This document shows, in pieces, positions 13,992-49,188 of a stretch of 64,000 nucleotides of DNA. This DNA comes from Candidatus Multivoradales bacterium. Lineage in GTDB: Bacteria > Acidobacteriota > Thermoanaerobaculia > Multivoradales > Multivoraceae. The position numbers were made by a program, and so were the translations under genes. The notes beneath the pieces were generated by a model that did not search any database, was not told the DNA's origin, and saw nothing but the letters and a program-made list of their open reading frames with translations. Numbering within the stretch: the first letter of the stretch is position 1; every line of letters starts with the position of its first letter. The stretch lies in the NCBI GenBank assembly GCA_965223325.1, contig CBDCWI010000002.1, forward strand, positions 3,968,001-4,032,000, given 5' to 3'.

Positions 13992-14062
13992 GTGCTGCAC
14001 GCCGGAGACCGCTGGTCGAGGTGTCCTACAACCCGGCTCCGCCACATCGAGAGCCGCGCCCG

Positions 14063-15501: not shown

Positions 15502-16227
15502 TCAGGCCGCAACGAGCGCCCGGTTCTCGAGGACCGCGGCAGGGTTGTGGAGCGTCAGGAGATCAGCCAGGTCGCGGTCACAGCGGGTTGTGATCTCGTC
15601 GTACGCCTGGGCGAGAAGTGGTGGCCGGTGTTCGATGTCGTGGCAGTCGCTGGCGACGAAGTGGACCAGGCCGGCGCGCAGCATGCGGTGAACAGACTCT
15701 GAAGGGCCTAGCCCGAAGTCGCCTACGACGCTCGTTGCCGTGACCTGCATCAGAGCGCCGAGGTCGATCAGGTCGGCCACGCGTCCGAGGTCGTGGGCGA
15801 GCCAGAGAAGGCACTCAGGATGGGCGATGATCGGTTGAATCCCAGCGAGCCTGAGTTCGTAGACTGCGTCTTCTGGCGTTGGGTGCTCAGCCGTTCGACC
15901 CCATTCGAGGAGCAAGTAGCGGGTGTCGGCTAGCCGGTTGACGCCCAGGTCGTCGAGCGAGGAGGCCAGGAGCAGTTCGTTGTCGATGCGTACCTCGCCC
16001 CCGAGCTCGAGCCGCAGCAGTTCACCAATCTCCTGCCTGAGCTCGGTGAGCTTTTCTTCGAGTTCGCCGCGGTCGGTGTTGTCGAAGTGCGGGTGGCGCT
16101 GGTGGGGGGTAGCCACCATCGCGGTGATCCCCTGCGCGGCCGCGTGTTGGCACAGCGCTACCGCCTCCTCGAGGGTTGCGGGGCCGTCGTCGACGTTCGG
16201 CAGGATGTGACAGTGCAGGTCGATCAT
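15502..16227 (-). CDS. CpsB/CapC PHP-family protein tyrosine phosphatase
   Basis: MIDLHCHILP.VDDG, ATPH, IAHPE, VASDCH. Confidence 0.93.
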   Translation of the reverse strand: MIDLHCHILPNVDDGPATLEEAVALCQHAAAQGITAMVATPHQRHPHFDNTDRGELEEKLTELRQEIGELLRLELGGEVRIDNELLLASSLDDLGVNRLADTRYLLLEWGRTAEHPTPEDAVYELRLAGIQPIIAHPECLLWLAHDLGRVADLIDLGALMQVTATSVVGDFGLGPSESVHRMLRAGLVHFVASDCHDIEHRPPLLAQAYDEITTRCDRDLADLLTLHNPAAVLENRALVAA

Positions 16228-18511: not shown

Positions 18512-19348
18512 CTAGAAGAAGGACTGCTTGACGAACACCACGTCTCCGGGGTGAAGTTCTGGGTCGGGTCGCCGTCCCGAGATCACCTGCTTGTAGTCGA
18601 CCTCGAACTCCTGTGTCTCGCCGTTTGGCCCCGCCCGTCGAACCGAGATCCTGCGGGCGGCGCGCTCGGTGAGTCCGCCAGCCTGTGCGATCACCGCAAG
18701 CAAGGTGATGCGCTGGCTACTGCTCCATCTGTAGAGACCTGGGCTCTCGACTTCGCCGAGACAGGAGACGGAAACCTCAACCGCCTCGGGCACGTTGACC
18801 AGATCGCCGGCGAAGATCGGGAGGTTGGCGCGCGGCTCACCGCGTAGGAAGAGATCGTCGATGCCGACTTCAATCTGGTCGGTGAGTCCGTTGCTGGCAG
18901 TTCGAATGACAAAGACCTTGCCGCCGTGGGATGGCGCGAGGCCGCCCGCGGCGGTAATGGCTTCGAGTAGGGTCCATCGACTTCCGAGGTCGAGTGCCCC
19001 GGGGTCTTTGACGGCGCCGATGACGTTGATCGGGCGCGAGCGATACTCGAGGATCTCGACGGTCACGGTCGCGCGACCCTCCTGGAGATAGCGTGACTCG
19101 AGTAGCCCGCGCAGTTCGGCTTCGACTTCCGAGCGTGTCCGGCCACCGACTTCGAAGTCGCCGAGGATGGGGAGCGACACACGCCCCATGTCGTCGACAC
19201 GGCCCTGTCCGTTCAGTTCGGGAGCTTCGAACACCTTGACCTGCAACATGTCTTTGGGGCCAATGGTGTAGGCGGAACTCTGGGCATGCGCTGCCACAGC
19301 GGCAGTGCTGAGTGTGATCACAACGATAAATCTAAGAATTCTTCGCAT
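18512..19348 (-). CDS. wza: Wza/OPX polysaccharide export protein with SLBB repeats
   Basis: YTIGPKD, G.VSLPILG, two SLBB repeats (AAGGL / QAGGL), PGDVVFV. Confidence 0.88.
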   Translation of the reverse strand: MRRILRFIVVITLSTAAVAAHAQSSAYTIGPKDMLQVKVFEAPELNGQGRVDDMGRVSLPILGDFEVGGRTRSEVEAELRGLLESRYLQEGRATVTVEILEYRSRPINVIGAVKDPGALDLGSRWTLLEAITAAGGLAPSHGGKVFVIRTASNGLTDQIEVGIDDLFLRGEPRANLPIFAGDLVNVPEAVEVSVSCLGEVESPGLYRWSSSQRITLLAVIAQAGGLTERAARRISVRRAGPNGETQEFEVDYKQVISGRRPDPELHPGDVVFVKQSFF

Positions 19349-23375: not shown

Positions 23376-25022
23376 CTATTCGACTTCGATCAGACCAGGG
23401 CTGATGGTGCTGCCGGCAAGCTGGCGGATCTCAACCAGGTGCATACCCGGCTCGATGGGCTCGTCGGTTGCCATCGTGAAGCGCTTGGATTTGCGTCGCG
23501 CCGACACACCCCAGGGGCCCAGGAACCGTCCGTCGAGGAAGACCTCGACAGCACCACCCTCAGCCGACGCAGCGACTTCGAGTCGTAGGTTCGAGGCTTC
23601 GCGGGCGACGCGAATCTCATGCCGAAACAGCCTGTCGGGGAGGAGGGTCCAGCCGACAGCATCGAAGGTCATGCCGGCAGCTTTGTCGAGGGCTTCGGTG
23701 AGAGTCTCGAGAGCGCGCGTTTCGTTGCGCCTGGTGGCAACGCTCAAGCGGGCTTCGATCCATACCGGGTCGCGCCGAAACTCGCGCTCGGTCTCAGCGA
23801 GGGCGCTCGCCGCGAGGTCTGGCTCGTCACGTTCGAGATGGGCCCTGGCCTTGGCGACCCAATAGGTGTTCCAGTCGCGCTGCCAGCGGGTCTCGTGCCG
23901 GCGTTCGATTCCCTCGGCGGCAGAGAGATCGCCTGCGACCACCAGCGCCCGCGCCTCGGTCGCTGGGTCGACGCCGGTCGCCAGGCTGGCGAGTCGCTTC
24001 GTCGCCGGCCCATCGAAGACGCAGTCTCCAAACAGGCAGCGATCGAGTTGCCACTGCAGCCAGGTGAGAGCTGTACTGTGACCCGGTCCGGCCGGAATGG
24101 CCTCGACCGCGCGTGCTACGAGGCCGGCGAATCGGACGTCGGTCGGCGCTTGGAGAACGCGGACCAGACGCTCGCGACCGCGCATCGTGTCGCCACCTCG
24201 AACCCGCTGCAGCCCATCCTCGAGGCGTGATTGCGCCTCTTCGTAGTGTGCCTCGCGCCAGGCCTCGCGATTGCTCGAGAAGCGTCGCCAGTCGCCAGCG
24301 GTTGCTAGCAGGCGGCCGACCCGGTCGTGCGCGTAGACCGAGCGGGGGAGCAGCTCGAGTGCCTCGTCCATGTCGTCGTTGACCTGCAACCAGGGTCCGA
24401 TCATGCGGTCGAAGGTCGCCTGATCGAGGAGCGCGTCGTGCAGCATGGTTCGCGTCTGCTCACGCTTGTCTTCCGAAAGGACTGGCCAAACCTCGAGGTA
24501 GGCCATGGTGAGGAAGCGTTCAACTTCTCCGCCTGATGGAGCCAGCTCGAGGGCACGCTCGAGCGGAGCCTCCCACTCGCGGAAGTGGGTGATGAGTCGT
24601 TGGTCCCGTTCGATCGAGCGCTCGAGGTAGCGGGATCCTCCGAGCACCAGGGCGGCCTCCCAGGAGCTAGGGATTCCCTCGAGGGCATGGAACGCGAACT
24701 CTTGTGCTTGGCGGAGTCCGCCGACTCGACTCTCCATGAGAGCGACACGAGCATCAATGGACTCGAGCTCGGCGTACGCTCCGAGATCCAGGGCGTCGGC
24801 CAACAGCAAACGGCCAGCGGCAATCTTTGCGTGCGGGTGGTCAGCCTCGCCGGTGACGGTTCGGCGCGCCTCCGGCTGGCGGGCGAGAAGACCGAAGCCG
24901 TCGAGGGCAGCGACGACTTCGCCGCGGCCTAGACGGTTGTCGATGGAAAGCAGCAGAGTTCCAGCGAGTGCCAGGAGCGCGACCATGCCCAAGGCCAGGC
25001 GGTGCGTGAGGAGGGAGACCAT
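23376..25022 (-). CDS. Membrane-anchored helical/TPR-like hypothetical protein
   Basis: N-terminal TM anchor from ATG 25022, helical repeats, C-terminal beta domain. Confidence 0.6.
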   Translation of the reverse strand: MVSLLTHRLALGMVALLALAGTLLLSIDNRLGRGEVVAALDGFGLLARQPEARRTVTGEADHPHAKIAAGRLLLADALDLGAYAELESIDARVALMESRVGGLRQAQEFAFHALEGIPSSWEAALVLGGSRYLERSIERDQRLITHFREWEAPLERALELAPSGGEVERFLTMAYLEVWPVLSEDKREQTRTMLHDALLDQATFDRMIGPWLQVNDDMDEALELLPRSVYAHDRVGRLLATAGDWRRFSSNREAWREAHYEEAQSRLEDGLQRVRGGDTMRGRERLVRVLQAPTDVRFAGLVARAVEAIPAGPGHSTALTWLQWQLDRCLFGDCVFDGPATKRLASLATGVDPATEARALVVAGDLSAAEGIERRHETRWQRDWNTYWVAKARAHLERDEPDLAASALAETEREFRRDPVWIEARLSVATRRNETRALETLTEALDKAAGMTFDAVGWTLLPDRLFRHEIRVAREASNLRLEVAASAEGGAVEVFLDGRFLGPWGVSARRKSKRFTMATDEPIEPGMHLVEIRQLAGSTISPGLIEVE

Positions 25023-25424
25023 AGAGAGGAGTTGTAAAGTGCGCCCCAATGGGCTCTGAAGATCGGGGGCGGGGTTTGTGGCCTGGGGGCGATCAGGATG
25101 AATCGCCGCCGCGGTGGCTGCCAAGGATATCGAACCGGCCGCAGATCCGGACCCGGTTGCGGTTCTTCCCAGCATGAACCCTTTCCAAGAGGAGGCGCTG
25201 GCCGGATGGCGGCCCTCTTTGTATAGTCGCGTCGCCCCTCTCACCGAACTGGCCTCCGGGGCGGCCGCGTCTGGATTCGCGCTCACACAGCCAGACGCTC
25301 CTAGACATCAATCGACCACGTCCCCTCCCGGCCACTCTCACGCGGCACTGCTCGCCGCCCTAAGCAAGCGGACCGGAGACCTAGCGAGTTCTCCACAGGT
25401 CCCGCTCCATTGGAGACAACTCTC

Positions 25425-27149
25425 ATGACCGATTCCCTCATCGCGCCTCACGGCGGCGATCTCAAAGAACTCATCGCGCTACCTGAACGCCAGGCGGAGC
25501 TCAAGGAGGCGTCTCGCGAGTGGCCGTCCTGGGACCTGACGGCGCGTCAGGCGTGTGACCTGGAACTGTTGTTGTGTGGTGGCTTCTCGCCGCTCGATGG
25601 GTTCATGAACCAGGCCGACTTCAACGCGGTCTGTGACTCGATGCGCCTGGCCGACGGCACCCTGTGGCCGATGCCAATCACCCTGGATGTCACCGAAGAC
25701 GTCGCCGAGCAGCTTTCTTCTGGCTCGCAACTCGCGTTGCGCGACGACGAAGGCGTGATGGTGGCCTGTCTGAACGTCGACGACATCTGGGAGCACGACC
25801 GCGAGAAAGATGCCGAGAGCGTCTACGGTTCACTCGATCGTGCACACCCTGGTGTGGCCCACCTGTTCGAGCGCACCAACAACATTTCGGTGGGGGGCAT
25901 GCTCGAAGGTCTGCAGCTGCCGTCGCACTACGACTTTCCCAAGCTCCGCATGACGCCGGCCCGCCTGCGGCGTGAGTTCGAGCGTCTGGGCTGGCGCAAT
26001 GCGGTTGCCTTTCAGACTCGCAATCCGATGCATCGCGCGCACTACGAGCTCACCCTGCGGGCCGCACGGGACTTGGAGACCAACCTCTTGATCCATCCAG
26101 TCGTCGGCATGACAAAGCCCGGCGACCTCGACCACTACACGCGTGTTCGCTGCTACCAGCGGCTGATGGACAACTTCCCGGCCCACACCGCGATGCTCTC
26201 GCTCTTGCCCCTCGCCATGCGGATGGCAGGTCCCCGCGAGGCGGTCTGGCACGCGATCATCCGCAAGAACTACGGCGCAACGCACTTCATCGTCGGCCGT
26301 GACCATGCCGGCCCCGGCAACGATTCCAAGGGCAACCCCTTCTATGGTCCGTACGATGCCCAGGAACTCCTGAGCAAGCACGAAGAAGAGCTCGGAATCT
26401 CGATGGTGCCGTTCAAGATGATGGTCTATGTCGAACGGCGCGGCTCATATGAACCCCTCGATGAGGTCGAGGAGGGAACCCGGACCTTGTCGATCTCGGG
26501 TACCGACCTCCGACGCCGCCTGGCAGAGGGTCTCGAGATTCCCGAGTGGTTCACCTTTCCCGAAGTTGCCGAGGAGTTGCGTCGGACGCATCCGCCGCGC
26601 AGCGAACAGGGGTTCACGGTCTTCTTCACCGGATTGTCGGGTTCCGGAAAGTCAACGATCGCCAACGCCTTGATGGTCAAATTGCTCGAGGCGGGTGGGC
26701 GTCCGGTCACGCTTCTCGATGGCGATTTGGTGCGCAAGAACCTGTCCTCTGAACTGGGCTTTTCCAAAGAACACCGTGACATCAACATCCGTCGCATCGG
26801 TTGGGTGGCTTCGGAGATCACCAAGAACGGCGGCATTGCGATCTGTGCGCCGATCGCGCCTTACCGCAACGTACGGCTCGAGGTTCGCGAAGAGATTGAA
26901 CCGCTCGGTGGTTTCGCACTCGTGCACGTGGCGACTTCACTCGAAGTCTGTGAACAGCGAGATCGCAAGGGGCTCTACGCCAAGGCACGCGCCGGCATCA
27001 TCAAGGAGTTCACTGGCATCTCTGATCCCTACGAAGAGCCGGAGAACGCTGAGTTGGTCATCGACACCGCGGACTGCACTCCTGAGCAAGCCGCCCAGCA
27101 GATCATCCTGCACCTCGAGAGTGAGGGGTACATCGGAGCGCGCGCCTGA
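25425..27149 (+). CDS. sat: Bifunctional sulfate adenylyltransferase/APS kinase (Sat-CysC, PAPS synthesis)
   Basis: GGFSPL.GFM, FQTRNPMHRAH, VGRDHAG, FTGLSGSGKST, RDRKGLY, FTGISDPYE; GGAG RBS before ATG 25425. Confidence 0.95.
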   Translation: MTDSLIAPHGGDLKELIALPERQAELKEASREWPSWDLTARQACDLELLLCGGFSPLDGFMNQADFNAVCDSMRLADGTLWPMPITLDVTEDVAEQLSSGSQLALRDDEGVMVACLNVDDIWEHDREKDAESVYGSLDRAHPGVAHLFERTNNISVGGMLEGLQLPSHYDFPKLRMTPARLRREFERLGWRNAVAFQTRNPMHRAHYELTLRAARDLETNLLIHPVVGMTKPGDLDHYTRVRCYQRLMDNFPAHTAMLSLLPLAMRMAGPREAVWHAIIRKNYGATHFIVGRDHAGPGNDSKGNPFYGPYDAQELLSKHEEELGISMVPFKMMVYVERRGSYEPLDEVEEGTRTLSISGTDLRRRLAEGLEIPEWFTFPEVAEELRRTHPPRSEQGFTVFFTGLSGSGKSTIANALMVKLLEAGGRPVTLLDGDLVRKNLSSELGFSKEHRDINIRRIGWVASEITKNGGIAICAPIAPYRNVRLEVREEIEPLGGFALVHVATSLEVCEQRDRKGLYAKARAGIIKEFTGISDPYEEPENAELVIDTADCTPEQAAQQIILHLESEGYIGARA

Positions 27150-27709: not shown

Positions 27710-29143
27710 ATGGCGAGGAAGAAGAGGGGCCGCAAGCCGGCGCGCACCGGAAAGTCCAGCCGGTCCGGTCGGCGCCGGCACCAGATGCCCGATTCGCACC
27801 GTGAAGGAGGCGGCTCCGCGATGGTGGGGCACACCGCGACCGCCGCATTGATTGCCACCGTCGTCATCCCGCCCCTGGTTCTCCTTCCGAGCCTGCACGA
27901 ACCGTTTCATTTGCCCAAGCTGCTCGCGAGCGAAGCGCTGGCGCTGGTTTCGATTGCTTTGGTTCTGTGGTCTCACCGTCGCGGGACGCTACCGGTTCCC
28001 AAGCACTGGTTCTCGGTACCCGCTGTACGCGTTGTTCTTCCGCTGTTCGTCGCTGCTCTCGTTTCTCTCCTGTTCACTGACCATCCGGCGCACACCCAGG
28101 AGGGAACCTGGTCCTTGGCTGTTGGGTGTGCTGCTCTGGTTGCCTGGGCAGTGGGGGTGCCGCGGCTGTCGCGCGTCTTCTACTTCTTGCTTCCGGTCGC
28201 GGCGCTGCTCGCGGTCGTTGGCATCCTGCAGACCTACGGGCGCGTGCCGACCTGGGGCGCGAGCGGTGGTGCGGATCGTCTCGGTGTGACCTCGCTCGCC
28301 GGAAGCGTCGGAGACTTCGCCGCCTACCTCGTTCTGCCGACTGTCCTGGCGCAATACTTCATCTGGCGAGGCTTTCTGCGCGCCGAACGTACGGCCAAAG
28401 AGCGTTGGTTGGGCGGCTTCGCTGTGATCGCTCTCGGGTGTGTCTTGTGGGCGGCCGTCGTCAGCCAGACTCTCGCTGCACTGGCCGCGCTGGCCATCGC
28501 GAGCCTCGCGCTCTGGGCCTTCCTTCTGCCGCCGCGGCGAGCCCTCTTGGTAACGGCGGTTGCCGTAACGGTCCTCGCTTCGGCCGTTCTCCTTGCCGAG
28601 CCCACCCGCGACCGCCTGATCGCCAAGACCGGTTCGGTTGCCGCCGGGCGCGTCGATCGGGTGCTTTCCGGACGTCTAGATGGCTGGAAGGCGGGCGCCT
28701 TCATGTTTTCGCAGCGGCCGGCAACGGGCGTCGGCCACGGTGCCTACGGTGCCTCGTTCGGAGGGGCCAAGCTCGGCCTGCATGAACGCGGCATCGAGCT
28801 GTACGACGGGCATCGCTTTCCCATCTTCGGCAATGCCCACAACGAGGTCATCGAAGTGGGCGCCGAGCTAGGCGTCCTTGGCCTCGGGGCTCTCGCCTGG
28901 GCGTTGTGGATCTTGCTGAAACGGGTACGCCGTCGCGTGAGGCTCGATCGGAGTGATCCGTCGAACGACGGGTATGGAGCCCTGGCCCTCGCCGGGCTTC
29001 TCGCCCTGGTCGTCTTGGGGAGCGCCTACTTTCCGTTTCGCATTGCACTGACCGCCTATCCGGCGATCCTGTTTCTGGGTTGGGTGTTGAGTCGGGATTT
29101 CCTGGACGAGGACGGCGCGACACAGGCGGAAGGTGCCCTCTGA
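27710..29143 (+). CDS. O-antigen ligase-family membrane protein
   Basis: EPFHLPK, multiple TM helices, R...W...M...P..GVG.G, NAHNEVIE..AELG. Confidence 0.8.
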   Translation: MARKKRGRKPARTGKSSRSGRRRHQMPDSHREGGGSAMVGHTATAALIATVVIPPLVLLPSLHEPFHLPKLLASEALALVSIALVLWSHRRGTLPVPKHWFSVPAVRVVLPLFVAALVSLLFTDHPAHTQEGTWSLAVGCAALVAWAVGVPRLSRVFYFLLPVAALLAVVGILQTYGRVPTWGASGGADRLGVTSLAGSVGDFAAYLVLPTVLAQYFIWRGFLRAERTAKERWLGGFAVIALGCVLWAAVVSQTLAALAALAIASLALWAFLLPPRRALLVTAVAVTVLASAVLLAEPTRDRLIAKTGSVAAGRVDRVLSGRLDGWKAGAFMFSQRPATGVGHGAYGASFGGAKLGLHERGIELYDGHRFPIFGNAHNEVIEVGAELGVLGLGALAWALWILLKRVRRRVRLDRSDPSNDGYGALALAGLLALVVLGSAYFPFRIALTAYPAILFLGWVLSRDFLDEDGATQAEGAL

Positions 29144-29676
29144 TGGCGAGCTCATCGAAGCCAGTGGCTGAGGGCGCCCGGGAGAGCATTCCGGCACGTT
29201 GGGTGGTGCTGCCGCTTTTGGTCGTGGTGTTGCTGGCCATCGCCCACGAGTGGCAGCGTGGTCGGGCACGCCTTACGGCGAGCCGTGCTTTGTCTGGTCT
29301 CGAATCTTCGGTTGCCCGTTCGCTCGCCACCGGCGGCGCCGCCGAGGCACAGTTGCAAGCCGGGGTTCAACTGCTGCGCAAGCTCGACGAGGAGAAGCTC
29401 GACCCGTCTGAGGTCGGTATTCCGATGGCTCTGGGAAGTCACTACCTGTTGCTCGAGTCACCTGACGCCGCGATTCGCTGGTACGAGACGGCATTGGCTC
29501 TCGAGACTCGACCCGAGATCCTGATCAACCTGGCGCGTGCCCATCGAATGGCGGGCAACGAGGAGCAGGCGCTGCTCTATCTCGAGCAGGCGCAGGTGCT
29601 CGACCCGTTGCGCTATTCGGCGAGTGCTACTGACGATGGTAGAACGCGGCGACGCAAGAAGAGGTCGGGCCGTTGA
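29143..29676 (+). CDS. Membrane-anchored TPR protein
   Basis: ATG 29143 overlaps the upstream TGA; one TM helix; two TPRs (A..WYE.AL, NLA.A...G..EQA). Confidence 0.7.
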   Translation: MASSSKPVAEGARESIPARWVVLPLLVVVLLAIAHEWQRGRARLTASRALSGLESSVARSLATGGAAEAQLQAGVQLLRKLDEEKLDPSEVGIPMALGSHYLLLESPDAAIRWYETALALETRPEILINLARAHRMAGNEEQALLYLEQAQVLDPLRYSASATDDGRTRRRKKRSGR

Positions 29677-30203
29677 GTCTGGAAGGCAACGGCGACAACT
29701 CCGCCACTGCGACATGGTTGCAAGCCGGCGCGGTTGAAGATTGCGGCCGCCGGCTCGCTCTGCTCGAGATGGCGCAGGATCTCGGTCAGCTCGAGTTGCT
29801 GGTTCGCGGTGACTGCATGGTGCCCCTGATCGTTGAGGGTGACAGGTTGGTGGTGGAACAAGAGAAGCGGTACTGGCCGGGAGACGTCGTTGCCTTCTTT
29901 GCGCACGACGGTCGTTTTCTGGTGCATCGGGTGATCGGCTATCGGCCGGTTGGCGGTCGACTGGGAGTCGTGACCGCTGCCGACCGCGCGCCCGGATGGG
30001 ACGATCCAGTGCCGGTGGGTGGGGTGCTCGGTCGTGTCGCGTCGATCAGCCGAGACGGTGAGCCCGCTGCGCTCGAGGTGTCACTGTCGAGGCGTGTCCT
30101 GGCCGCTTCGACTTTCGTTTCGGTCGCTGTGAGCCGTACTCTGAGGCGGCTCTTTCCATCGTCGGATGCAAAGGTGGGCTCTGACATTGAGGGTCAGCGA
30201 TGA
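29673..30203 (+). CDS. S24/S26 peptidase-like protein with a Cys at the catalytic position
   Basis: VRGDCMVPLI.EGD (cf. GxSMxP), GDVVAF, LVHRVI. Confidence 0.7.
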   Translation: MSLEGNGDNSATATWLQAGAVEDCGRRLALLEMAQDLGQLELLVRGDCMVPLIVEGDRLVVEQEKRYWPGDVVAFFAHDGRFLVHRVIGYRPVGGRLGVVTAADRAPGWDDPVPVGGVLGRVASISRDGEPAALEVSLSRRVLAASTFVSVAVSRTLRRLFPSSDAKVGSDIEGQR

Positions 30204-31147
30204 CGTTTGGTGAGCGCTTGCTGGTCAGTCCAGAGCTCTTTCCGGCCCGTGCGGCCGGGGAGCGCTGGGGAACTGAAGCGCTCTGGATCGACTTTGCGGG
30301 TGGCCCCTACTGCTTTCTGGGCCTGGCAGCGGATCAGTGCTCGGTGTTGCGCGAGCACTTCGGGGAGTTGGTCATTGGCGGCGCGCCTCCCGGGCAGGTC
30401 GATCATCTGCACGTCGATGTCTTTCGTGTCGAAGCAACAGACTGGCGCTCTTTCGACCTGGCGGGCTGGGAGTATGAAATGGATTTCGACTACTCCGAAC
30501 ACAGCGTTCGGCTGGTCGGCCTCGGTTTCATGGGGCGTCTCGAGTGGCGAAGGCCCGATACCCTTCGAGGCGCACTCTTCGTCGCCAGCAGGACCGCCGA
30601 GCCGCTGACCGGGGCCTTCGAGAACTTCTTTCGGGTCCTGGTGGCCTATCGCCTCCTGGCGCTCGGAGGGTTGCTCATCCACTCCGCCGGTGTAGTTCTA
30701 GGCGATGCGGTCCATCTGTTTCTGGGGCGCTCGGGAACTGGCAAGACGACCCTGTCCCGGCTGGCGCTCGACGCTGGGTTGTGCGTTCTCTCTGACGATG
30801 TCAATGCCGTCGTGCCTGACGAGCGGGGTCGTTTCGTGGCCGAGAAGCTCCCCTTCGCCGGCGAGCTCGGCCCCTCGGTCACCAGCAGCGATGCCTATCC
30901 GTTGGCGGGGGTCTGGCAGTTGGCGCAGGGAGAAGCACACGCCGTGCGCTCCGTCTCACCGTCACGAGCAGTGGCCAGCCTGCTGGTCTCGGCGCCGTTC
31001 ATCAACGCTGATCCTCATCGACAAGACCGACTGTTCGAGGTGGCGACCGCGATCGCTCACCAGGTTCCCAACGGCCACCTCGACTTTGCGCGCCAACCAG
31101 GCGTGTTCGCCCTCCTCAACAGTAAGAACCCGGAGCCTTCCGTATGA
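30200..31147 (+). CDS. HPr kinase-related P-loop kinase (ScmC/PadeK-like)
   Basis: LIHSAGV, GRSGTGKTT Walker A, LSDD, PFAGE. Confidence 0.8.
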   Translation: MTFGERLLVSPELFPARAAGERWGTEALWIDFAGGPYCFLGLAADQCSVLREHFGELVIGGAPPGQVDHLHVDVFRVEATDWRSFDLAGWEYEMDFDYSEHSVRLVGLGFMGRLEWRRPDTLRGALFVASRTAEPLTGAFENFFRVLVAYRLLALGGLLIHSAGVVLGDAVHLFLGRSGTGKTTLSRLALDAGLCVLSDDVNAVVPDERGRFVAEKLPFAGELGPSVTSSDAYPLAGVWQLAQGEAHAVRSVSPSRAVASLLVSAPFINADPHRQDRLFEVATAIAHQVPNGHLDFARQPGVFALLNSKNPEPSV

Positions 31148-31425
31148 CCGAGATCAAGAAACTCCACCGCGCAGGCGACGTGCGCTTTCGCGCCGTCGGT
31201 GGCGAGACCGTGGTCTTGCGGCAGAACGACGCTTTGGTACTGGTCCTCAACGAAGTCGGCGGCCGCGTGCTCGAGCTTGCCGACGGTCGGACCGAAAGTG
31301 AGATCGTCGACGAATTGATTGACGAATTCGAAGTCGAGCGCGCCGAACTCGAGGCCGACGTGAGTGCGTTCGTGACCGAGTTGATTGGAGAGGGCGTTGT
31401 CGTCGCCCAGGAGTCGCTCAGCTAG
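31144..31425 (+). CDS. PqqD-family RiPP recognition element (stand-alone RRE)
   Basis: 93 aa; VRFR.VGGE.VVL, LNEVG..V.EL.DG, I...L..EFEV....L..DV..F...L...G. Confidence 0.9.
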   Translation: MTEIKKLHRAGDVRFRAVGGETVVLRQNDALVLVLNEVGGRVLELADGRTESEIVDELIDEFEVERAELEADVSAFVTELIGEGVVVAQESLS

Positions 31426-32587
31426 CTAGGACTTTGAGTCGGCGGCGCGGGGTCGCGACTTTCTTCGGCCCGCTTCCGAGAGCGTGACCCTCCCTGTCGG
31501 TCGAGGGGGCGATCGGCTCGCCAGACTGAGCAGCCGCTTTGAGCTCGCCGCGCTTCTTCGCCGCGGCGTGAACTTCGAGCGGGTCGCCGGTACGACTTTC
31601 GGCTGCGCCCGGGCAGAACGACATCAGGTTCGCGTTGGGGCCAGACCTTTCGACTCTGACCAGAACTTCGCGGTTGAGATCGCGCAGGTCTCGAACCGGC
31701 TCGGCCTGCCAGATCTCGCGCAATGAGCTCTCCCTCAGGTTGCCTATGGAGCGTCGCCACTGTACACACGGGTAGACGTTGCCGAAGGGATCGATCGCCA
31801 GAGTCGAGGAGCCGGCGCCGCAGAAGCGAGTCCGCGGTGGTGGTTTCTGGGTGGACCTTGCGGGACTCTCCGTTGAGGGGCGTTGGGCCTGCTCTGCCCG
31901 CTCGCGGTCACGTGCAGCAGCGATGCGTTCGGCCTGGATCCGGAAGAGGCGTGCGACCGCCGCATCGGAGGCGCTGATGGCGAGCGGCTCGTCGTCACCA
32001 TCGTCACGAACGGTGACCTCGGGATCGATCTGCAGGGCGACACCGAGTCGATCGGCGATTGCGTACATGCCTTCGATCTGGTCTTCGTTCCAACGCGTGA
32101 GGGTCGAGTTGATCTTGAGACGCATGCCGCGGCCTTTGATCTCCTCGAGATTCTCGAGGAGGCGTTCGAAGCTGCCGGCGACCTGGGTCTGTTGGTCGTG
32201 GGTCGAGGCGCAGTCACCATGAAGGCTGACTTCGATCAGAAACGGGTCGACCTCGGAGTGGAGACGTTCGAGCATCGCGCCGCGCAGAGCATGGCCGTTC
32301 GACTTCACCCGCACCGCGAAGCCGCGCTCCCGGGCGTACGCACCGATCGTGAAAAAGTCCGGGTGAGCCAGTGGCTCCCCTCCCGAGAGAATCAGGTTGA
32401 GCGCCCCCATTTCGGCCAACGCATCGATCGTCTGGAGCCAGTCCGGGGTCTCGAGGGGCTGGCCCACCAACGACAGGTCGTTGTAGCAGAACCAGCAGTC
32501 GAGGTTGCAGCGGTAGGTGAGCTCGAAGAGGGCAGTAAACAGCCGCTCCTCTTCCCACAGGCGGGCGGCGATTTCGCGAAAGGCCAG
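31418..32587 (-). CDS. Radical SAM peptide maturase with Twitch/SPASM-like C-terminus
   Basis: ELTYRCNLDCWFCY, SGGEP, SNG, CGAG..TLAIDPFGNVYPC...IGNL, FCPG. Start placed at CTG 32587 behind an AAGGA RBS. Confidence 0.88.
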   Translation of the reverse strand: MAFREIAARLWEEERLFTALFELTYRCNLDCWFCYNDLSLVGQPLETPDWLQTIDALAEMGALNLILSGGEPLAHPDFFTIGAYARERGFAVRVKSNGHALRGAMLERLHSEVDPFLIEVSLHGDCASTHDQQTQVAGSFERLLENLEEIKGRGMRLKINSTLTRWNEDQIEGMYAIADRLGVALQIDPEVTVRDDGDDEPLAISASDAAVARLFRIQAERIAAARDRERAEQAQRPSTESPARSTQKPPPRTRFCGAGSSTLAIDPFGNVYPCVQWRRSIGNLRESSLREIWQAEPVRDLRDLNREVLVRVERSGPNANLMSFCPGAAESRTGDPLEVHAAAKKRGELKAAAQSGEPIAPSTDREGHALGSGPKKVATPRRRLKVLAS

Positions 32588-32652
32588 GGTGGAAGTCCTT
32601 CGGGAGTGGGGAGGGCGGGGAACCGCTTGGAGGGGTCGACGACCCTTAGGAC

Positions 32653-32823
32653 CTAGGAAGAAATCGGGCCGCCAGGGCAGCTGCCGTAGTCGGCTTTGCC
32701 GGGGCCTGAGCACACCGCGGCGACGACTTCGAGCGCCTCGCGCGACAGGATTACCGGGCGCTGGTAGCGTCGCCGGTCCTGCTTGGGGTCCTTCGCTTTG
32801 GGCTTTGGAACGGGCTTCTTCAT
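32653..32823 (-). CDS. Putative RiPP precursor peptide, 56 aa (absent from the ORF track)
   Basis: Hand translation: MKKPVPKPKAKDPKQDRRRYQRPVILSREALEVVAAVCSGPGKADYGSCPGGPISS*. GGAAG RBS 7 nt upstream; YxxPxI leader motif; directly upstream of the rSAM gene. Confidence 0.85.
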   Translation of the reverse strand: MKKPVPKPKAKDPKQDRRRYQRPVILSREALEVVAAVCSGPGKADYGSCPGGPISS

Positions 32824-32871
32824 GAGGTGACTTCCATCTACGCGGGAGGCGAGACCCTCCCGAGCCCAAAA

Positions 32872-32900
32872 ATCGTATCAAAACTATTATTTCTACTCAA
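32872..32900 (-). promoter_or_regulatory. sigma70-like promoter of the precursor-rSAM unit
   Basis: TTGAGT (32900-32895)-17 nt-TACGAT (32877-32872); 5'UTR hairpin CGGGAGG/CCTCCCG at 32843-32862. Confidence 0.65.
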
Positions 32901-32905
32901 GCTGG

Positions 32906-34330
32906 TCAGGTGCCCGGGCTGGTCAGGATGATCTTGATCGTTCGCAGCAGGATGGAGAGGTCCAACCAGAGGCTCCAGTTGGCCAGGTAGGCGAGGTCGT
33001 AGCGCAGTTTGTTACGGGCGCTCGAGTGGTAGTTGCCATTGACCTGCGCTAGGCCGGTCAGCCCTGGGGGCATCGCGAAGCGCTCGATGTAGCCGGGAAT
33101 CTCGTCGATGAACTGAGCGACGAAGCTCGGGCGCTCGGGCCGTGGACCCACCAGGCTCATCTCTCCCCGCAACACGTTGAGGAGCTGCGGGACCTCATCA
33201 AAGCGGCTGCGGCGCAGGAAGCGGCCCACCGGAGTGATACGGGGGTCTTCGGGACTGGCGAGGACGGCGCCGGTGCTGGATTCGGCGTCCACCACCATGG
33301 TGCGCAGCTTGAGCAACTCGAAGGGCTGTCGATCACGGCCGAGCCGCTTCTGGCGAAAAATCACCGGGCCTGGCGAGCTCCAACGCACTGCGATCGCCGC
33401 GACGATCATGAAGGGAATCGACAGGAAGAGCGCCAACGAAGCAACCACGACGTCGAAGGCACGTTTGAAGGGAAGGCTTGCGCGCCACTCCGAGGCCCGC
33501 ATGACCTCGATCAGCGCCATGTCGTGGACCGAGCGGAAGCGAGTGCGACCGATCAGGCTCTCGAAGGGACTGGGCAGGAGCAAGACGGTGCCTCGCTGAC
33601 TGGGCTGGCGCGCCATGCGGTCGATCAGACGCGTTTGCCAGTCGTCGGGTGAGGCGGCCATCACGATCATGTCGATGGTTCCGTCGTCGATGAGATCTGG
33701 CAGGTCCGCCACGCTGCCCAGGTGTGGTCCGAGCGTTTCCCTGGGGTGCCAGGTATCCCTTTCCCCGCCACGCGCGCGACGGCCTTCCTCGGGAATCGCC
33801 ACGTGCCCTCCGATGCGGAGTCCATGCCAGTGGTACCTCTCGATGTGCAGTGCCAGCTCCCGCGCCGCGTCGGAGGTGCCGATGATGGCGACCTTGCGCC
33901 ACTCGGTGGGTTGCAACTGCATGAGCAGCAGGCGAAACAGAAACAGCACGACCAGGTGAATAGGCCAGAACAGCACCAGCACCGATCGTGGAAAGGTGAG
34001 CTGAGACAAGAAGTAGAAGGCCATCAAGAGAAGCGTCTGAATGCTGACGACTGCCAACAGGCGGTTGAGAACCTCGAGGCGAGGTCTCGGGCGTCCGCCG
34101 TCGTAGAAACCAAACAACCACAGGAGCAGGTTCTGCGTGATCACGACCAGCAGCGAGGCGGTGCCGAAGAAGATCAGTCGCTCCTGCGGCAACAGCGCCT
34201 GAGTCAGTGGAATGGGCAGCGTAATGCGGACCAGAAACGCCAGGTAGAGCGACAAGAGCCCCACTGCAACATCGCCCGAGGCGCGCACGAGGCGAAAAAG
34301 CAGCCGAAGTTGGTTTGTTGCGGAATCCAT
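32906..34330 (-). CDS. Polyprenyl glycosylphosphotransferase (WcaJ/WbaP-like priming transferase)
   Basis: Four N-terminal TM helices, KRAFD, KLRTM, DPRITPVG.FLR..RFDEVPQL.NV..GEMSLVGPRPER, PGLTGLAQV, WSLWLD. Confidence 0.92.
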   Translation of the reverse strand: MDSATNQLRLLFRLVRASGDVAVGLLSLYLAFLVRITLPIPLTQALLPQERLIFFGTASLLVVITQNLLLWLFGFYDGGRPRPRLEVLNRLLAVVSIQTLLLMAFYFLSQLTFPRSVLVLFWPIHLVVLFLFRLLLMQLQPTEWRKVAIIGTSDAARELALHIERYHWHGLRIGGHVAIPEEGRRARGGERDTWHPRETLGPHLGSVADLPDLIDDGTIDMIVMAASPDDWQTRLIDRMARQPSQRGTVLLLPSPFESLIGRTRFRSVHDMALIEVMRASEWRASLPFKRAFDVVVASLALFLSIPFMIVAAIAVRWSSPGPVIFRQKRLGRDRQPFELLKLRTMVVDAESSTGAVLASPEDPRITPVGRFLRRSRFDEVPQLLNVLRGEMSLVGPRPERPSFVAQFIDEIPGYIERFAMPPGLTGLAQVNGNYHSSARNKLRYDLAYLANWSLWLDLSILLRTIKIILTSPGT

Positions 34331-40000: not shown

Positions 40001-41539
40001 TCAGGGTGACGGCGGATTGAGCCGACGGTCGAACTCTGGCGGCGCGCGTTCGAACGAGGCACGATGATGCGCTACCGTGCTCTCGATCGCGGCCACCACT
40101 TCGGGGTGTTCGGCGGCAACGTCGAAGCGCTCCTCCGGATCGCGGTGGAGGTCGTAGAGAAGCGGAGGGTCGTGCTCGGCGCGCGCCGGGGGCGCGCCAT
40201 AGGCGCCTTCGGTGACGAAGTGCAGCTTGAACCGCCCCTGCCGCCAAGCGCGTAGTTCGCCGCTGCGGTAATACGCGATTCCCTCGTCTGATGCGGGTTC
40301 TCGGTCCCTTAGAAGGGGCATCAGATCTGTTCCGTCGAGGCTGATCTCCTCCGGTGCCGGAACGCCGGCCAGCGCCAGGGCGGTGGGGAAGATATCGAGG
40401 GTGCTCCTGGGTACGCTCGACACCCCAGGCGCGATCACACCCGGCCACCAGAAGATCGCCGGCACTCGCATGCCACCCTCGAAGGTCTCGCCTTTGCCGC
40501 CGCGCAAGAGTCCGGCGCTGCCGCCGTGCTGGTTGAGGGTGCGCCAGGGCCCGTTGTCGCTGGTGAAGACCACCAGCGTGTTCTCGGCCAATCCACCTTG
40601 GCGAAGCGCTTGGGCGATTCGGCCGACGTTGGCGTCGAGCTCTTCAATGACGTCGCCGTAGAGGCCCGCGAGGCTCTGGCCCTCGAAGTCGGCGCTCCGG
40701 AACAGGGGCACGTGCGGCATGGTGTAAGGAACGTAGAGCAGAAACGGTCGCGAGTCGGCCTGGCGTTGTTTCAGAAACTGGAGCGCGCGATCCGTGTAGC
40801 GCTCGGTCAAGGTGGTCTGGTCGGCGGGTCGCTCGACGGTTCGATCTTCGAACGTATCGCCGGTGCGGCGGCTTTCAAAGAGCGGTACGTTCCAGAAGTC
40901 GACCTCAGGTGCGAAGTAGGCAGCACGCTTCTTTGCCCGGTCGGCGGCGAGGTCTTCGGTGCGCCCGCTAGCGACCGCTCGCAGGGTCTCTGGAAAGTCC
41001 ATGCCGACTTCCCAGTCCATGTCGTTCGAGTAGGGCAGACCGAGCCATTCATCGAAACCATGGCGGGTCGGCCACGCCTCGGGGCGGTCGCCGAGGTGCC
41101 ATTTACCAAAAACCGCCGTCGCGTAGCCAGCGTCGCGGAGCACCTCGGCGAGAGTCAGCTCGCGTTCCGGCAGACCTCCGGGGTCGTCCGGAAAATACAC
41201 CCCGATGCGTTCGCCGTAGAGTCCCGTGCGCACCGGCAGGCGGCCGGTGAGGAGGGCACCGCGACTCGGTGAACACACCGGCGCGGCGACGTAGAAGTCG
41301 GTCATGCGCAGACCTTCACGTGCCATCTGGTCGAGGTGGGGTGTGCGGATCGTTGGGTGACCGAAACTGCCAAGGTCGCCGTAACCGAGATCGTCGGCAA
41401 ACAGGATCACGATGTTGGGGGGTGTCGGGCTTTCGTTCGCCCCCTGTTCGGCGACGCTCTGTGGGTCGCATGCCGCCAGAAGAAGTGCGCCCCAAGCGAG
41501 CACGGCGAGTCTGATCCCCGTTGCTCCGGGCCCTTTCAT
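40001..41539 (-). CDS. Arylsulfatase (formylglycine-dependent), probable lipoprotein
   Basis: LLAAC lipobox, PNIV..FADDLGYGD, CSPSRGALLTG, GKWHLG, SDNG. Start reassigned to ATG 41539. Confidence 0.92.
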   Translation of the reverse strand: MKGPGATGIRLAVLAWGALLLAACDPQSVAEQGANESPTPPNIVILFADDLGYGDLGSFGHPTIRTPHLDQMAREGLRMTDFYVAAPVCSPSRGALLTGRLPVRTGLYGERIGVYFPDDPGGLPERELTLAEVLRDAGYATAVFGKWHLGDRPEAWPTRHGFDEWLGLPYSNDMDWEVGMDFPETLRAVASGRTEDLAADRAKKRAAYFAPEVDFWNVPLFESRRTGDTFEDRTVERPADQTTLTERYTDRALQFLKQRQADSRPFLLYVPYTMPHVPLFRSADFEGQSLAGLYGDVIEELDANVGRIAQALRQGGLAENTLVVFTSDNGPWRTLNQHGGSAGLLRGGKGETFEGGMRVPAIFWWPGVIAPGVSSVPRSTLDIFPTALALAGVPAPEEISLDGTDLMPLLRDREPASDEGIAYYRSGELRAWRQGRFKLHFVTEGAYGAPPARAEHDPPLLYDLHRDPEERFDVAAEHPEVVAAIESTVAHHRASFERAPPEFDRRLNPPSP

Positions 41540-41543
41540 CGCC

Positions 41544-43128
41544 CTAGTCCTGTGGCTGATCGAAGCGTGGAACAAGCGTCGCCCCCGTATCGTCGATGCG
41601 TTCCTGAAGAGCCGTCCACATCGAGTTGAAGAGCGAACGCAGTTCTTCATCGTCGGTGCCTTCTCCGAACAGATCGAGCAACACCGGAACGCGCAGTCTG
41701 GGCCCCAGCACCCGTGAATCAATGTTGCCGATCCCGGCTCGGGTGCGATAGTCCGCGATGAGGTTGTGGCGTTCCTCCGGGTCCCGTGCGAGGTCGTAGA
41801 GCTCCCAGCCATCCCAGACGCCGTGCGTGACGATGAGTTTGTGCGTGTCGGTACGGAGCGCGAAGGTGGTGGGGGTTTGAGGGAACGCCCACTCCCAGAA
41901 GTACTCGTAGAGAAACGAAGAGCGCCACGGCGGCCGTCCCTCGGGTGCGGCCTCGAGCAGTGGAACGAAAGACCGCCCGTCGATTGCCTCAGGCTGTACG
42001 GTACCGGCCATGTCGATGAAGGTGGGTGCGAAGTCAATGTTGAGCACCATTTCTGGTCGTCGGGTGGGTTCGGTGCCCGGAACCCGAACGATCAGCGGCA
42101 CGCGAATCGACGCCTCGTAGGCGGTCCGTTTGTCGATCAGGCCGTGTTCGCCGAACTGAAACCCGTTGTCTGACGTGAAGACGACGACCGTGCGTTGGTC
42201 GAGGCCCAGCCTTCCAAGCGCTTCGAGTAGCCGTCCCGTCGAGTCGTCGACGGCGCGCAGGGCCTCGGCGTAGTCGCGCGTAAAGGTACCCATATCGCTC
42301 GTGCGGTTGTACATGCCGTCGACGCCGTGCCAGCTCATGCGTTGTGCGCGCACCCAATCGGGTTTGCCACGGTAGTTCTCGTCGTTGTCTGCCATCGACT
42401 CGGGAAATGGATACGCACGGTCTTTGTAGCTTCCGGCATGGCGGGTTGCGGGTTGAAAGGGTGAATGCACCGCCTTGTGAGACAGGTAGAGCAGGAAGGG
42501 CTGCTTCTTTTGTGCGGCACTCTCGAGGAACTCGATTGCATGATCGGTCAGCCGGTCGGTGATGTAGCCGTCACCGGCGACCCGCTTGCCATCGATGTTG
42601 AAAGCCTGATCGACATAGGTTCCCTGGCCGGGGAACGATACCCATCGGTTCCAGCCCGGCCGCGGTGAGTCGTTCTCGCCGCCCATGTGCCACTTGCCGA
42701 TGAAGGCCGTGTCGTAGCCTGCGGCTTGCAGCGCAGTTCCGAATGTTGGTAGCTCGGGCTCGAGCGGTACTCGGTTGGCCAGCACGCCGTGTTTGTGCGC
42801 CAGTTGACCGGTGAGGATCGAGGCGCGGCTCGGAGAGCACAGTGAGGTGGTCACGAAAGCGTTCTCGAAGACGACGCTCTCGCTGGCGAGGCGGTCGAGG
42901 TGGGGTGTTTCAAAGAACGTGTTGCCGAGCGCGCGCGCGCCATCGAAGCGTTGATCATCGGTGAGGATGAAAACGATCGACGGACGATCGAGCGTGGTCT
43001 CGGCCTGGGCAGGACTGCTCAGTCCATGCGAAGACCAGGAAGATCGAAAGCGTCAGGCAAAGGAGCGTTCGGCGTTTGCAGGCGGCTGTTCCCAGCGGCA
43101 CGCTGGTTCTGGCTCTCGGAGATGGCAT
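41544..43128 (-). pseudogene. Sulfatase (N-acetylglucosamine-6-sulfatase-like) with a frameshift in the signal-peptide region
   Basis: The catalytic frame extends upstream of 42854 (AQAETTLDRPSIVFILTDDQRFD...CSPSRASILTG), but the signal peptide from ATG 43128 is in another frame; shift near 43026. Confidence 0.7.
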
Positions 43129-45140: not shown

Positions 45141-45162
45141 GCCGCTAGCCTATAGAAGCCCT

Positions 45163-48459: not shown

Positions 48460-48591
48460 GAGTGGGGTCCTCGGGCAGAAGCCCGTCAAAACAACATATT
48501 CGACTAATTCTATTCTTTCTAGCCTCAAATCCGAAATCCGGCTGGGCCTGCACAGGTACAGTGAGGCGATCAACCAAGAGAGGAGTCGCCC

Positions 48592-49188
48592 GTGAAGACC
48601 TTCATCCACCCGCTGTCCTTGGCCTTTGTACTGGCTGTGGCGGTCCTGGTCGCTCTGCCCCTGGCCGCCGAAGTTCCCTCCGCCGACGTGCAGATCGCGG
48701 CCGCTCTGCAGGCCGCGCCGGCCGACCGGCGCGCCGAGGCCGGCGTCCTCGGCTATGACGAGTCCGGAAAGCTCGTGACCCTTCGCGCGGCCAAGAACGA
48801 CCTCATTTGCCTCGGCGACACCCCGGGCGACGACCGTTGGAGTGTCGCCTGCTACCACGAGTCGCTCGAGCCGTACATGGCCCGCGGTCGTGAGTTGAAT
48901 GCTGAGGGGGTCACCGGCAAGGAGCGCAACGACCTGCGCTGGAAAGAAATTGCCGACGGCAAGCTCGACATGCCACGCGAACCGCGCACCCTCTACGTCA
49001 TGAACGGCGACGGCTACGATAGCGACAAAGACGAGGTCGAGAACGCGTATGTTCGTTGGGTCATCTACATGCCCTATGCGACGCCGGAGTCCACCGGTCT
49101 GAGTGCCAAACCCGTCGAAGGAGCACCCTGGCTGATGTTCCCCGGCACAGCGGGTGCGCACGTGATGATCAATCCGCCGCGCCCTTGA
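48592..49188 (+). CDS. Hypothetical exported protein
   Basis: AGGAG RBS, signal peptide, GC3-rich coding pattern; VACYH and PWLM.PGT.GAHVMI segments. Confidence 0.75.
   Translation: MKTFIHPLSLAFVLAVAVLVALPLAAEVPSADVQIAAALQAAPADRRAEAGVLGYDESGKLVTLRAAKNDLICLGDTPGDDRWSVACYHESLEPYMARGRELNAEGVTGKERNDLRWKEIADGKLDMPREPRTLYVMNGDGYDSDKDEVENAYVRWVIYMPYATPESTGLSAKPVEGAPWLMFPGTAGAHVMINPPRP

Follow-up and report, generated by a model that had tools for sequence, protein, structure and literature searches.

A probable maturation cassette for a ribosomal peptide, of a widespread uncharacterised family, among polysaccharide genes of an acidobacterium

What is made by a handful of short, overlapping genes that lie in two opposed groups between genes for polysaccharide synthesis? 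The question is raised by a stretch of 64,000 nucleotides (nt) from a Candidatus Multivoradales bacterium of the phylum Acidobacteriota (assembly GCA_965223325.1, contig CBDCWI010000002.1, positions 3,968,001 to 4,032,000 of the forward strand). We refer to this whole stretch as the window and give all coordinates in its own numbering. A preliminary description of its letters had seen here a cassette for a peptide that is made on the ribosome and modified after translation (RiPP), complete with an unannotated precursor. Taken as a whole, the stretch is best explained, and we think likely so, as encoding a ribosomal-peptide maturation cassette that belongs to a widespread, uncharacterised family.

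The open reading frame (ORF) list and two profile scans bear out the anatomy first described, that of two convergent units. On the plus strand, a soluble peptidase of the S24/S26 fold (29673-30203) is followed by a P-loop kinase-like protein of 315 amino acids (30200-31147) and a PqqD-type RiPP recognition element (RRE; 31144-31425), the last of which had been named correctly (PF05402, 56.9 bits). The minus strand carries a radical S-adenosylmethionine (SAM) enzyme with a Twitch-like C-terminal domain (31418-32587, the start being approximate) and the gene of a 56-amino-acid precursor peptide (32653-32823), an ORF with homologues in those relatives that bear the radical SAM gene. The PqqD and radical SAM genes converge, and the end of the latter overlaps the PqqD stop codon by 8 nt.

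Do these genes belong together? We sampled the phylum evenly, with 401 genomes of which one (G189) is unpublished. The kinase-like gene is present in 140 of them and the peptide in 67 (about one sixth), all of which also have the kinase-like gene; a relative of the radical SAM enzyme (E <= 1e-50) occurs in 123, including 65 of the 67 peptide-positive genomes. We also took 20 loci around kinase-like genes, one per genome in 20 genomes, and scanned them with local profiles. Radical SAM and PqqD genes adjoin the kinase-like gene in 18 of these loci, one to three peptide genes are found in 16 and an S24-like peptidase in nine, the commonest order being peptidase, kinase, PqqD, radical SAM, peptide(s). 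The five genes with the 56-amino-acid precursor are real, are conserved as a set and co-occur across the phylum; what had been called a RiPP-type cassette does hold precursor, recognition element, radical SAM enzyme, kinase-like protein and peptidase together in evolution. Some small genomes (G210:C6, G256:C36, G266:C116) have three or four tandem kinase-like paralogues and two radical SAM copies, which suggests arrays of several cassettes.

The precursor deserves particular scrutiny, as an ORF of this size might arise by chance. Our set of relatives comprises 41 genomes, 12 of which, the window's own included, have an orthologous radical SAM gene (47-58% identity, E <= 1e-102). With tblastn and a motif scan, a homologous small ORF was found beside the radical SAM orthologue in five relatives, in two copies in two of them. 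A profile made from seven peptides matched strongly (E <= 1.5e-11) in 11 of the 12 orthologue-bearing genomes and in none of the remaining 29. The sole radical SAM-positive relative without a peptide match is a 500-contig assembly in which the radical SAM gene sits on a 3.8-kb contig, and three weak matches in other relatives (E 1e-3 to 6e-3) all lack the motif. Because intact homologues ending in Ser and a stop codon are found in 11 of the 12 relatives with the orthologous enzyme, the 56-amino-acid ORF is, judged by this conservation, a genuine and previously uncalled precursor gene and no chance ORF. The unannotated precursor of the preliminary description is sound.

Upstream of its ATG, the peptide gene has a GGAAG at a distance of 7 nt. 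The minus-strand promoter once placed ahead of it fares less well: a sigma-70 consensus scan of 29000-33500 returned 0 promoter-like sites, and what remains is an extended -10-like block, TGnTAYGAT (32872-32880, minus strand), a candidate promoter that is kept upstream of the peptide gene in a same-genus relative. Note that precursor and enzymes need not be neighbours, in that the peptide match sits at a distant locus in five of the 11 peptide-positive relatives. In five such loci of the window's family (L137-L141), the precursor adjoins a gene for a sigma-54-dependent response regulator; an FHA-GAF-PP2C phosphatase gene lies near the distant precursor gene in four of the five, and a protein of ~600 amino acids without any family adjoins it in at least three.

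The peptide itself divides into a leader that reads R-x-x-Y-x-x-P-x-[IL] plus E-x-x-E and a core in which a single Lys stands between two Cys and Ser is the last residue. Y20, P23, E29, E32, A35, C38, K43, C49 and S56 are invariant in all 14 aligned peptides, where the Y20/P23 motif is followed by I, L or V and fits the [Y/W]xxPx[LVIFA] leader motif of the linear polyphosphorylated peptides (LPP) of Bacillota, to which we return below. A profile search of 1.84 billion representatives widens the family: 878 proteins pass E <= 1e-3, of which 137 also pass E <= 1e-10, the 878 being cluster representatives at 50% identity. Among the best 150 of these 878, two Cys with a Lys between them are present in every one, the C-terminal residue is Ser in 149 and Thr in one, the spacing from Lys to the second Cys is five in 122, and seven residues follow the second Cys in 114. 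Lengths in the same 150 nearly all fall between 43 and 106 amino acids, with the match reaching the C-terminus, and one protein of 714 amino acids has the match at its C-terminal end. Across the family, D or N is frequent two residues after the Lys. Inspection by eye showed no Tat or Sec signal and no lipobox in the peptide, whose first Cys is mostly preceded by A-A-V or A-A-T.

The radical SAM enzyme scores above cut-off for both PF04055 (65.7 bits) and the SPASM family PF13186 (43.6 bits), which places it with the SPASM/Twitch maturases. Its CX3CX2C cluster motif (Cys 30/34/37) and three C-terminal Cys (259/277/328) are kept in all 12 orthologues. Since only three C-terminal Cys are conserved, the domain is, by its residues, Twitch-like and not a full SPASM domain, despite the Pfam match and in keeping with the earlier assignment. 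NCBIfam models of known maturases remain distant (MftC, the third-best match, 101 bits against a cut-off of 265; PqqE 88 against 381; StsB 100 against 625; PapB 62 against 340), and the GeoRSP, mycofactocin, PQQ, sactipeptide and ranthipeptide models are all far under cut-off for the cassette. Near the cassette there are recurrent sulfatase genes, often as TPR fusions (L113, L116, L118, L119, L124; window 40001-42037), and these raised the idea of an enzyme like the anaerobic sulfatase maturases. That candidate was dropped, as the radical SAM gene tracks the peptide and PqqD; nor is there a sulfatase-maturase model among the best 25 of its 66 NCBIfam matches.

Two features of the window's radical SAM gene stand out. 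Where orthologues start with M-[AS]-F, the window has a CTG (32587, reading L-A-F) that an AAGGA precedes by 8 nt. The interval from the peptide stop codon to the cluster motif holds neither ATG nor GTG nor TTG; the CTG is, on these letters, the probable start. Four runs, possibly the source of the assembly itself, have contigs that read identically here. Moreover, the gene is co-directional with PqqD in a same-genus relative and runs against it in the window. Inverted repeats flanking it, as traces of an inversion, were sought, and only short imperfect pairs of <=16 nt were found at the relevant places.

What of the proteins on the opposite strand? The best solved relative of the PqqD protein is TbiB1 (5v1u, E 7.8e-13), followed by other lasso RREs, and RREs labelled "PqqD family" stand beside these among its solved relatives. 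When the RRE and the peptide were predicted as a complex, the pair scored 0.57 compared to 0.01 for the best control, with at least 93% of contacts agreeing among runs and a partner pLDDT of at least 54. Of the solved complexes used for calibration, 116 of 157 came up to this mark, as did 2 of 215 mismatches; at <=0.60, however, we find only 18 of the 157 solved complexes plus both passing mismatches, and likeness to solved RRE-leader complexes may add to the score. We rate the outcome as weak support.

In the kinase-like protein, H161, G-x-S-G-x-G-K-T and L-S-D-D are invariant in 12 of 12 sequences, and its model (pLDDT 85.4) shows the fold of phosphoenolpyruvate (PEP) carboxykinase, PEPCK, over both domains (Z 14.5, root-mean-square deviation 4.5, 261 residues aligned). 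Of the earlier label, an HPr-kinase-like protein, what stands is membership, by motifs and modelled fold, of the PEPCK/HprK superfamily; the closer tie to HprK is taken up below. The neighbouring peptidase matches PF00717 at 25.1 bits (cut-off 23.3) and TIGR02228, the archaeal-type signal peptidase, at 33.7 bits (under the cut-off of 51.85), and has the fold of the LexA C-domain and signal peptidases (Foldseek E 6.8e-5), as the name S24/S26-like had implied. The nucleophile of its G-x-[C/S]-M-x-P motif is Cys in seven of eight sequences and Ser in one, and H85, R86, D104 and D110 are invariant. By analogy, this enzyme is the predicted leader peptidase.

If the cassette matures a peptide, which protein might the peptide serve? 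A large PorU/gingipain-like Peptidase_C25 protein (Pfam; 778-1567 amino acids) adjoins the module in 14 of the 20 loci, and tblastn places a C25 gene within 1.5 kb of 23 of the 29 peptide loci outside the window. Note that the 29 peptide loci and the 20 kinase-like loci overlap in genomes. The C25 gene ends just 5' of the peptide gene in four same-order relatives, and in two of them the pair is duplicated as a unit. The C25 proteins have N-termini with visible signal peptides, keep G-H-G and the catalytic Cys in 14 of 14 cases, and find their best NCBIfam match in PorU (NF033707), the sortase of the type IX secretion system (T9SS), with 206 bits in relatives and 209 in this genome against a cut-off of 420. 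The T9SS C-terminal sorting domain (TIGR04183) has no match in the genome, but none in any control genome either. In one relative a fusion of peptide and C25 was considered and rejected, the long open frame differing in frame from the C25 match. A gene for an extracytoplasmic function-type sigma factor lies directly beside the C25 gene in four loci (L116, L117, L120, L123). The window's genome has eight C25 genes on contigs C1 and C2 (L129-L136), six in open frames of 3755-4573 amino acids and two in frames of ~1360, none of them near the cassette. In its layout, the window locus resembles L109, from a relative in a second family, as that locus would appear with its C25 gene lost and its radical SAM gene inverted.

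The cassette in the window keeps other company. Ahead of the peptidase lie, on the plus strand, genes for an O-antigen-ligase-like Wzy_C membrane protein (27710-29143; PF04932, 51 bits) and a membrane-anchored TPR protein recognised by Pfam (29080/29143-29676). The ATG of the latter at 29143 has one base in common with the Wzy_C stop codon, and 4-nt start/stop overlaps at 29673, 30200 and 31144 chain the TPR, peptidase, kinase-like and PqqD genes, so that the head-to-tail arrangement with O-antigen-ligase and TPR genes is as first reported. Because of these overlaps, we read the Wzy_C and TPR genes as translationally coupled to those for the peptidase, the kinase-like protein and PqqD. Polysaccharide genes do occupy both flanks: on one side, a WcaJ-like polyprenyl glycosylphosphotransferase (32906-34330, minus strand; TIGR03025, 388 bits, above cut-off) is encoded on the same strand as the peptide gene and upstream of it; on the other, the profile scan found Wza (18512-19348, minus strand) and Wzc (16227-18479, minus strand), in an upstream locus that also holds CpsB, three glycosyltransferases and two further Wzy_C genes. 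The preliminary description had noted that no ABC exporter adjoins the cassette, and indeed no ABC transporter domain was found among the window ORFs scanned.

How far does this setting extend? Wzy_C/TPR genes adjoin the cassette in the window and in seven of 12 same-order loci (six of this family and one of a second family, where a relative, L109, has a fused Wzy_C+TPR protein of 854 amino acids), WcaJ does so in five of the 12, and four of the order's own loci (L020, L022, L026, L028) are without these polysaccharide neighbours. Outside the order, Wzy_C, WcaJ and glycosyltransferase families were found in 0 of 19 loci within ~7 kb, a count that rests on crude gene calls. As far as these gene neighbourhoods indicate, the glycan link is restricted to one lineage, two families of this order. 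The tie to surface-glycan synthesis that had been proposed for the pathway consequently survives within part of the order and fails beyond it, where the C25 gene is the neighbour instead; as a local adaptation in this order it is possible but rather unlikely.

Further genes in the window touch on this setting. A bifunctional ATP-sulfurylase/APS-kinase gene (25410-27149), for synthesis of 3'-phosphoadenosine-5'-phosphosulfate (PAPS) via adenosine-5'-phosphosulfate (APS), adjoins the cassette in the window's family, and sulfation of glycan or peptide is conceivable. A 636-amino-acid protein without Pfam or NCBIfam match (23376-25286, minus strand) is syntenic with that gene and the cassette in family relatives. 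Within the exopolysaccharide (EPS) locus, there are also a member of PF14907 (4941-6161), an "uncharacterised nucleotidyltransferase" family that includes the NTP transferases of LPP and lasso systems, 24 kb from the cassette, and a 643-amino-acid protein with a weak Asn-synthase match (12174-14105), 17 kb from it. Elsewhere (43176-49242, minus strand), a 1359-amino-acid M36 fungalysin-like metallopeptidase stands side by side with an M61 glycyl aminopeptidase with a PDZ domain.

Taking these parts together, we propose the following scheme, in which the roles of RRE, kinase and peptidase are modelled on LPP and lasso systems and the chemistry of the radical SAM enzyme is suggested by the invariant Cys. 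Like the recognition elements of lasso and LPP systems, the PqqD-type protein would bind the leader through its YxxPx[IL] stretch. The radical SAM/Twitch enzyme would cross-link the core, the likeliest products being thioether bridges from the two invariant Cys; because of the fixed K-x5-C spacing and the frequent D or N two residues after the Lys, the acceptor may well lie in the Lys-containing loop. The kinase of the PEPCK/HprK superfamily would phosphorylate a Ser, likeliest the invariant C-terminal one, as lasso-peptide kinases do, and the signal-peptidase-like Cys/Ser-His-Asp enzyme would remove the leader while the recognition element holds it, as LppS does. Judged from the conserved residues, the product is most likely a cross-linked, Ser-phosphorylated peptide of ~19 residues. 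Across most of the phylum the matured peptide would work with the adjoining secreted C25 cysteine peptidase. In the window genome the cassette would instead be coupled to the Wzy_C-TPR membrane protein in a polysaccharide locus, and because of that coupling its product probably acts at the cell envelope. Such a cassette would unite two logics that have been studied apart, radical SAM cross-linking on the one hand and, on the other, the kinase plus signal-peptidase-like processing of Bacillota LPPs (2026). The near-constant pairing with C25 speaks for a function in the cell envelope or in the control of proteases, and not for a classic secreted antibiotic; the invariant Y, P, two Cys, Lys and C-terminal Ser yield directly testable predictions.

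Several observations weigh against this scheme. The prediction of RRE and peptide as a complex was rated as weak support. The kinase-like protein matches no HprK model at E <= 0.01 in Pfam or NCBIfam, and its best structural matches are PEP carboxykinases, so that a Ser-kinase role is predicted from motifs and analogy. Even granting that role, the phospho-Ser of LPP is core residue 3 and not C-terminal in the published account (PMC13381572), so that another Ser may be the site of phosphorylation in this cassette. Eleven of the 20 loci have no S24-like peptidase, and leader removal there may fall to another enzyme. In the window itself, the radical SAM gene is without a canonical start codon at the orthologous position, and neither the window locus nor its genus has a C25 gene at the cassette. 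With this partner absent and no exporter nearby, the window copy could be reduced or rewired. The precursor and its enzymes are all present here, as described at first; that the pathway is complete has become doubtful for want of the conserved C25 neighbour.

Two kinds of neighbour suggest two functions. Imagine that the matured peptide serves the C25 protein, either as a tight-binding loop inhibitor or chaperone that presents its Lys between the two bridged Cys, or as the substrate or acceptor of a sortase-like transpeptidation. We would then expect what is seen in most loci: a C25 gene beside the peptide gene (23 of 29), pairs that are duplicated together, catalytic His and Cys kept in 14 of 14 C25 proteins whose best NCBIfam match, at 206 bits, is PorU, and a Lys in all of the best 150 of 878 loops at a fixed spacing to the second Cys. 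Yet the window genome and its genus have no adjoining C25 gene (the eight elsewhere in the genome notwithstanding), the PorU cut-off of 420 bits is not reached, and no route of export is visible for the peptide, although the C25 protein is secreted. This account is doubtful as it stands; partnership with C25 is nonetheless the best-supported lead for the function of the family, if a tentative one. The alternative is that the peptide is a building block or acceptor of surface polysaccharide, on which Wzy_C-TPR and the WcaJ-like transferase build or attach a glycan, for example on the phosphorylated C-terminal Ser. The chain of gene overlaps from Wzy_C to PqqD speaks for it, as do synteny within the order (Wzy_C/TPR in seven and WcaJ in five of 12 loci), the PAPS-synthesis gene, Wza, Wzc and glycosyltransferases nearby, and the fact that the Wzy_C family includes O-antigen ligases and O-oligosaccharyltransferases. 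It also has precedents in the published accounts of pseudomycoidin, with hexoses on phospho-Ser (PMC9266682), and of LPP clusters, located in capsule loci with EPS co-induction (PMC13381572). If the peptide were generally a glycan acceptor, though, we would not expect polysaccharide neighbours to be absent, by our crude gene calls within ~7 kb, from all 19 loci outside the order, and also from four of the order's own; in addition, the modifying enzymes are cytoplasmic, Wzy_C enzymes work on the membrane's outer face, and no exporter is seen. We consider it improbable on balance. A bolder idea would join the two: the matured peptide would be an envelope adaptor and not an antibiotic, its radical SAM-bridged loop offering the Lys as a handle for a sortase-like C25 and its phospho-Ser as a handle for a glycan or lipid carrier. 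We regard this as a long shot. If it were true, a ribosomal peptide would link surface proteolysis or protein anchoring with polysaccharide synthesis, and the C25 and Wzy_C-TPR/WcaJ neighbourhoods would be two halves of one function.

The remaining alternatives concern what kind of locus this is. The window copy might be a decaying remnant that has lost its C25 partner, with its radical SAM gene inverted and its ATG lost; the gene order unlike that of the same-genus relative, the CTG in place of the orthologues' ATG and the missing C25 gene would all follow. But no invariant residue is lost from any of the five proteins or from the peptide, their frames are open, a good AAGGA precedes the CTG by 8 nt and the promoter-like block of the peptide gene is conserved, which makes decay unlikely. 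Still less probable is that the peptide is processed to a small redox cofactor, like mycofactocin or pyrroloquinoline quinone (PQQ), made from a few invariant residues at the C-terminus or close to it. A PqqD-type chaperone, a radical SAM enzyme and a peptidase are the architecture of such pathways, the C-terminal residue is invariant, and the mycofactocin maturase is the third-best NCBIfam match of the radical SAM enzyme; against this, the MftC and PqqE scores (101 and 88 bits) lie far under cut-off, conservation spans ~19 core residues with fixed spacings and not one or two, and cofactor pathways have nothing that corresponds to the kinase or the secreted protease. Hardly credible, finally, is membership of a known class, be it a SynChlorMet (Scm) cassette or a lasso peptide with tailoring enzymes. 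Weak matches to ScmC, ScmD, ScmE and ScmF, a lasso-type leader motif with a B1-like RRE, the PF14907 nucleotidyltransferase and the weak Asn-synthase-like gene elsewhere in the window hint at it, and the nearest Pfam-bearing Atlas clusters are lasso precursor families (0.77-0.80, a lead only). However, Scm scores fall five to six times under their cut-offs with one radical SAM gene instead of two, the conserved module of 20 loci has no macrolactam synthetase or B2 peptidase, and the Asn-synthase-like gene lies 17 kb off in an EPS operon and its family is unseen among the scanned neighbours of the 20 loci. A ribosomal-peptide maturation cassette of a family of its own remains the likely reading, and we compare it below with its closest counterparts.

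Our literature searches, which covered open-access papers and preprints, found no description of this cassette or its product, in agreement with the earlier view that the pathway is probably uncharacterised. The SynChlorMet cassette (NCBIfam TIGR04248-TIGR04251), which is defined by bioinformatics only, likewise unites a radical SAM/SPASM enzyme with a relative of PqqD and a kinase-like protein of the ScmC type. It differs in having two radical SAM genes and another precursor family, and all four of its models are far under cut-off here: ScmC (TIGR04249) scores 22.7 bits (E 5.2e-5, cut-off 125), ScmD (TIGR04248) 20.3 bits (cut-off 100), and ScmE and ScmF 73.2 and 62.7 bits (cut-off 400 each), both for the single radical SAM gene. 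These scores and the single gene rule out membership, to which the resemblance first noted does not amount. Thioether RiPPs, that is, sactipeptides and ranthipeptides with maturases such as StsB, PapB and SkfB, share a Cys core, an RRE-guided radical SAM enzyme and a C-terminal auxiliary-cluster domain, and SkfB is a Twitch-type enzyme. Unlike them, the cassette has only three C-terminal Cys in its maturase, a separate RRE and an added kinase and signal-peptidase-like enzyme, and its StsB and PapB scores are low.

Phosphorylated lasso peptides such as paeninodin and pseudomycoidin (kinases PadeK, ThcoK and PsmK) resemble the cassette in other respects. HprK-like kinases are described as phosphorylating the conserved C-terminal Ser of lasso precursors, with hexoses placed on that phosphorylated Ser in pseudomycoidin (PMC9266682), and YxxPxL is given as the leader motif of lasso precursors (PMC6784204). 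The present family shares the conserved C-terminal Ser, theirs being phosphorylated on the linear precursor, as well as the B1-type RRE, the YxxP leader and, possibly, later glycosylation of the phosphate. Yet neither an Asn-synthase-like macrolactam synthetase nor a transglutaminase-like B2 peptidase was found among the scanned neighbours in the 20 loci or beside the window cassette, and the class-defining step would be that of the radical SAM enzyme. Without cyclase and B2 peptidase in the conserved module, we set the idea of a lasso peptide aside.

The closest characterised system is LPP (Popov et al. 2026, PMC13381572), which the paper describes as restricted to Bacillota and whose product and role are, by the same account, likewise unknown. 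It comprises the precursor LppA, the recognition element LppB, the HprK-like kinase LppK, shown experimentally to phosphorylate Ser (polyphosphorylation), and the leader peptidase LppS, which resembles archaeal-type signal peptidases and depends on the RRE for its cleavage of the leader; that leader has a YxxP motif, and the clusters, which lie in capsule loci, are induced along with an EPS gene (PMC13381572). We note several differences. In the LPP system as described there, the precursor cores are variable and phosphorylated at Ser3, while the short precursor here has, besides two invariant Cys, a single Lys and Ser as its last residue; the peptidase has a Ser-His-Asp set, as against a Cys nucleophile in seven of eight sequences here; and an MsbA-like exporter and an NTP transferase feature, neither of which adjoins the cassette here (the PF14907 gene is 24 kb off). 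The usual neighbour in our family is a secreted C25 peptidase, and the host belongs to a different, high-GC phylum. In gene composition the two systems nevertheless look alike, each with a trio made up of a separate PqqD-type RRE, a kinase of HprK-like kind (a predicted one in our cassette) and a signal peptidase I-like enzyme that is soluble; both have a YxxPx[LVI] leader motif and a location in a capsule or EPS locus; and the spacings of the catalytic residues are similar, C48-H85-D110 being 37 and 25 residues apart here and S29-H68-D93 39 and 25 in LppS (PMC13381572). The words "radical" and "rSAM" do not occur in the main text of that paper (PMC13381572); the conserved core here includes a radical SAM/Twitch enzyme, in 18 of 20 loci. 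To what is known of LPPs, then, the cassette adds a radical SAM step.

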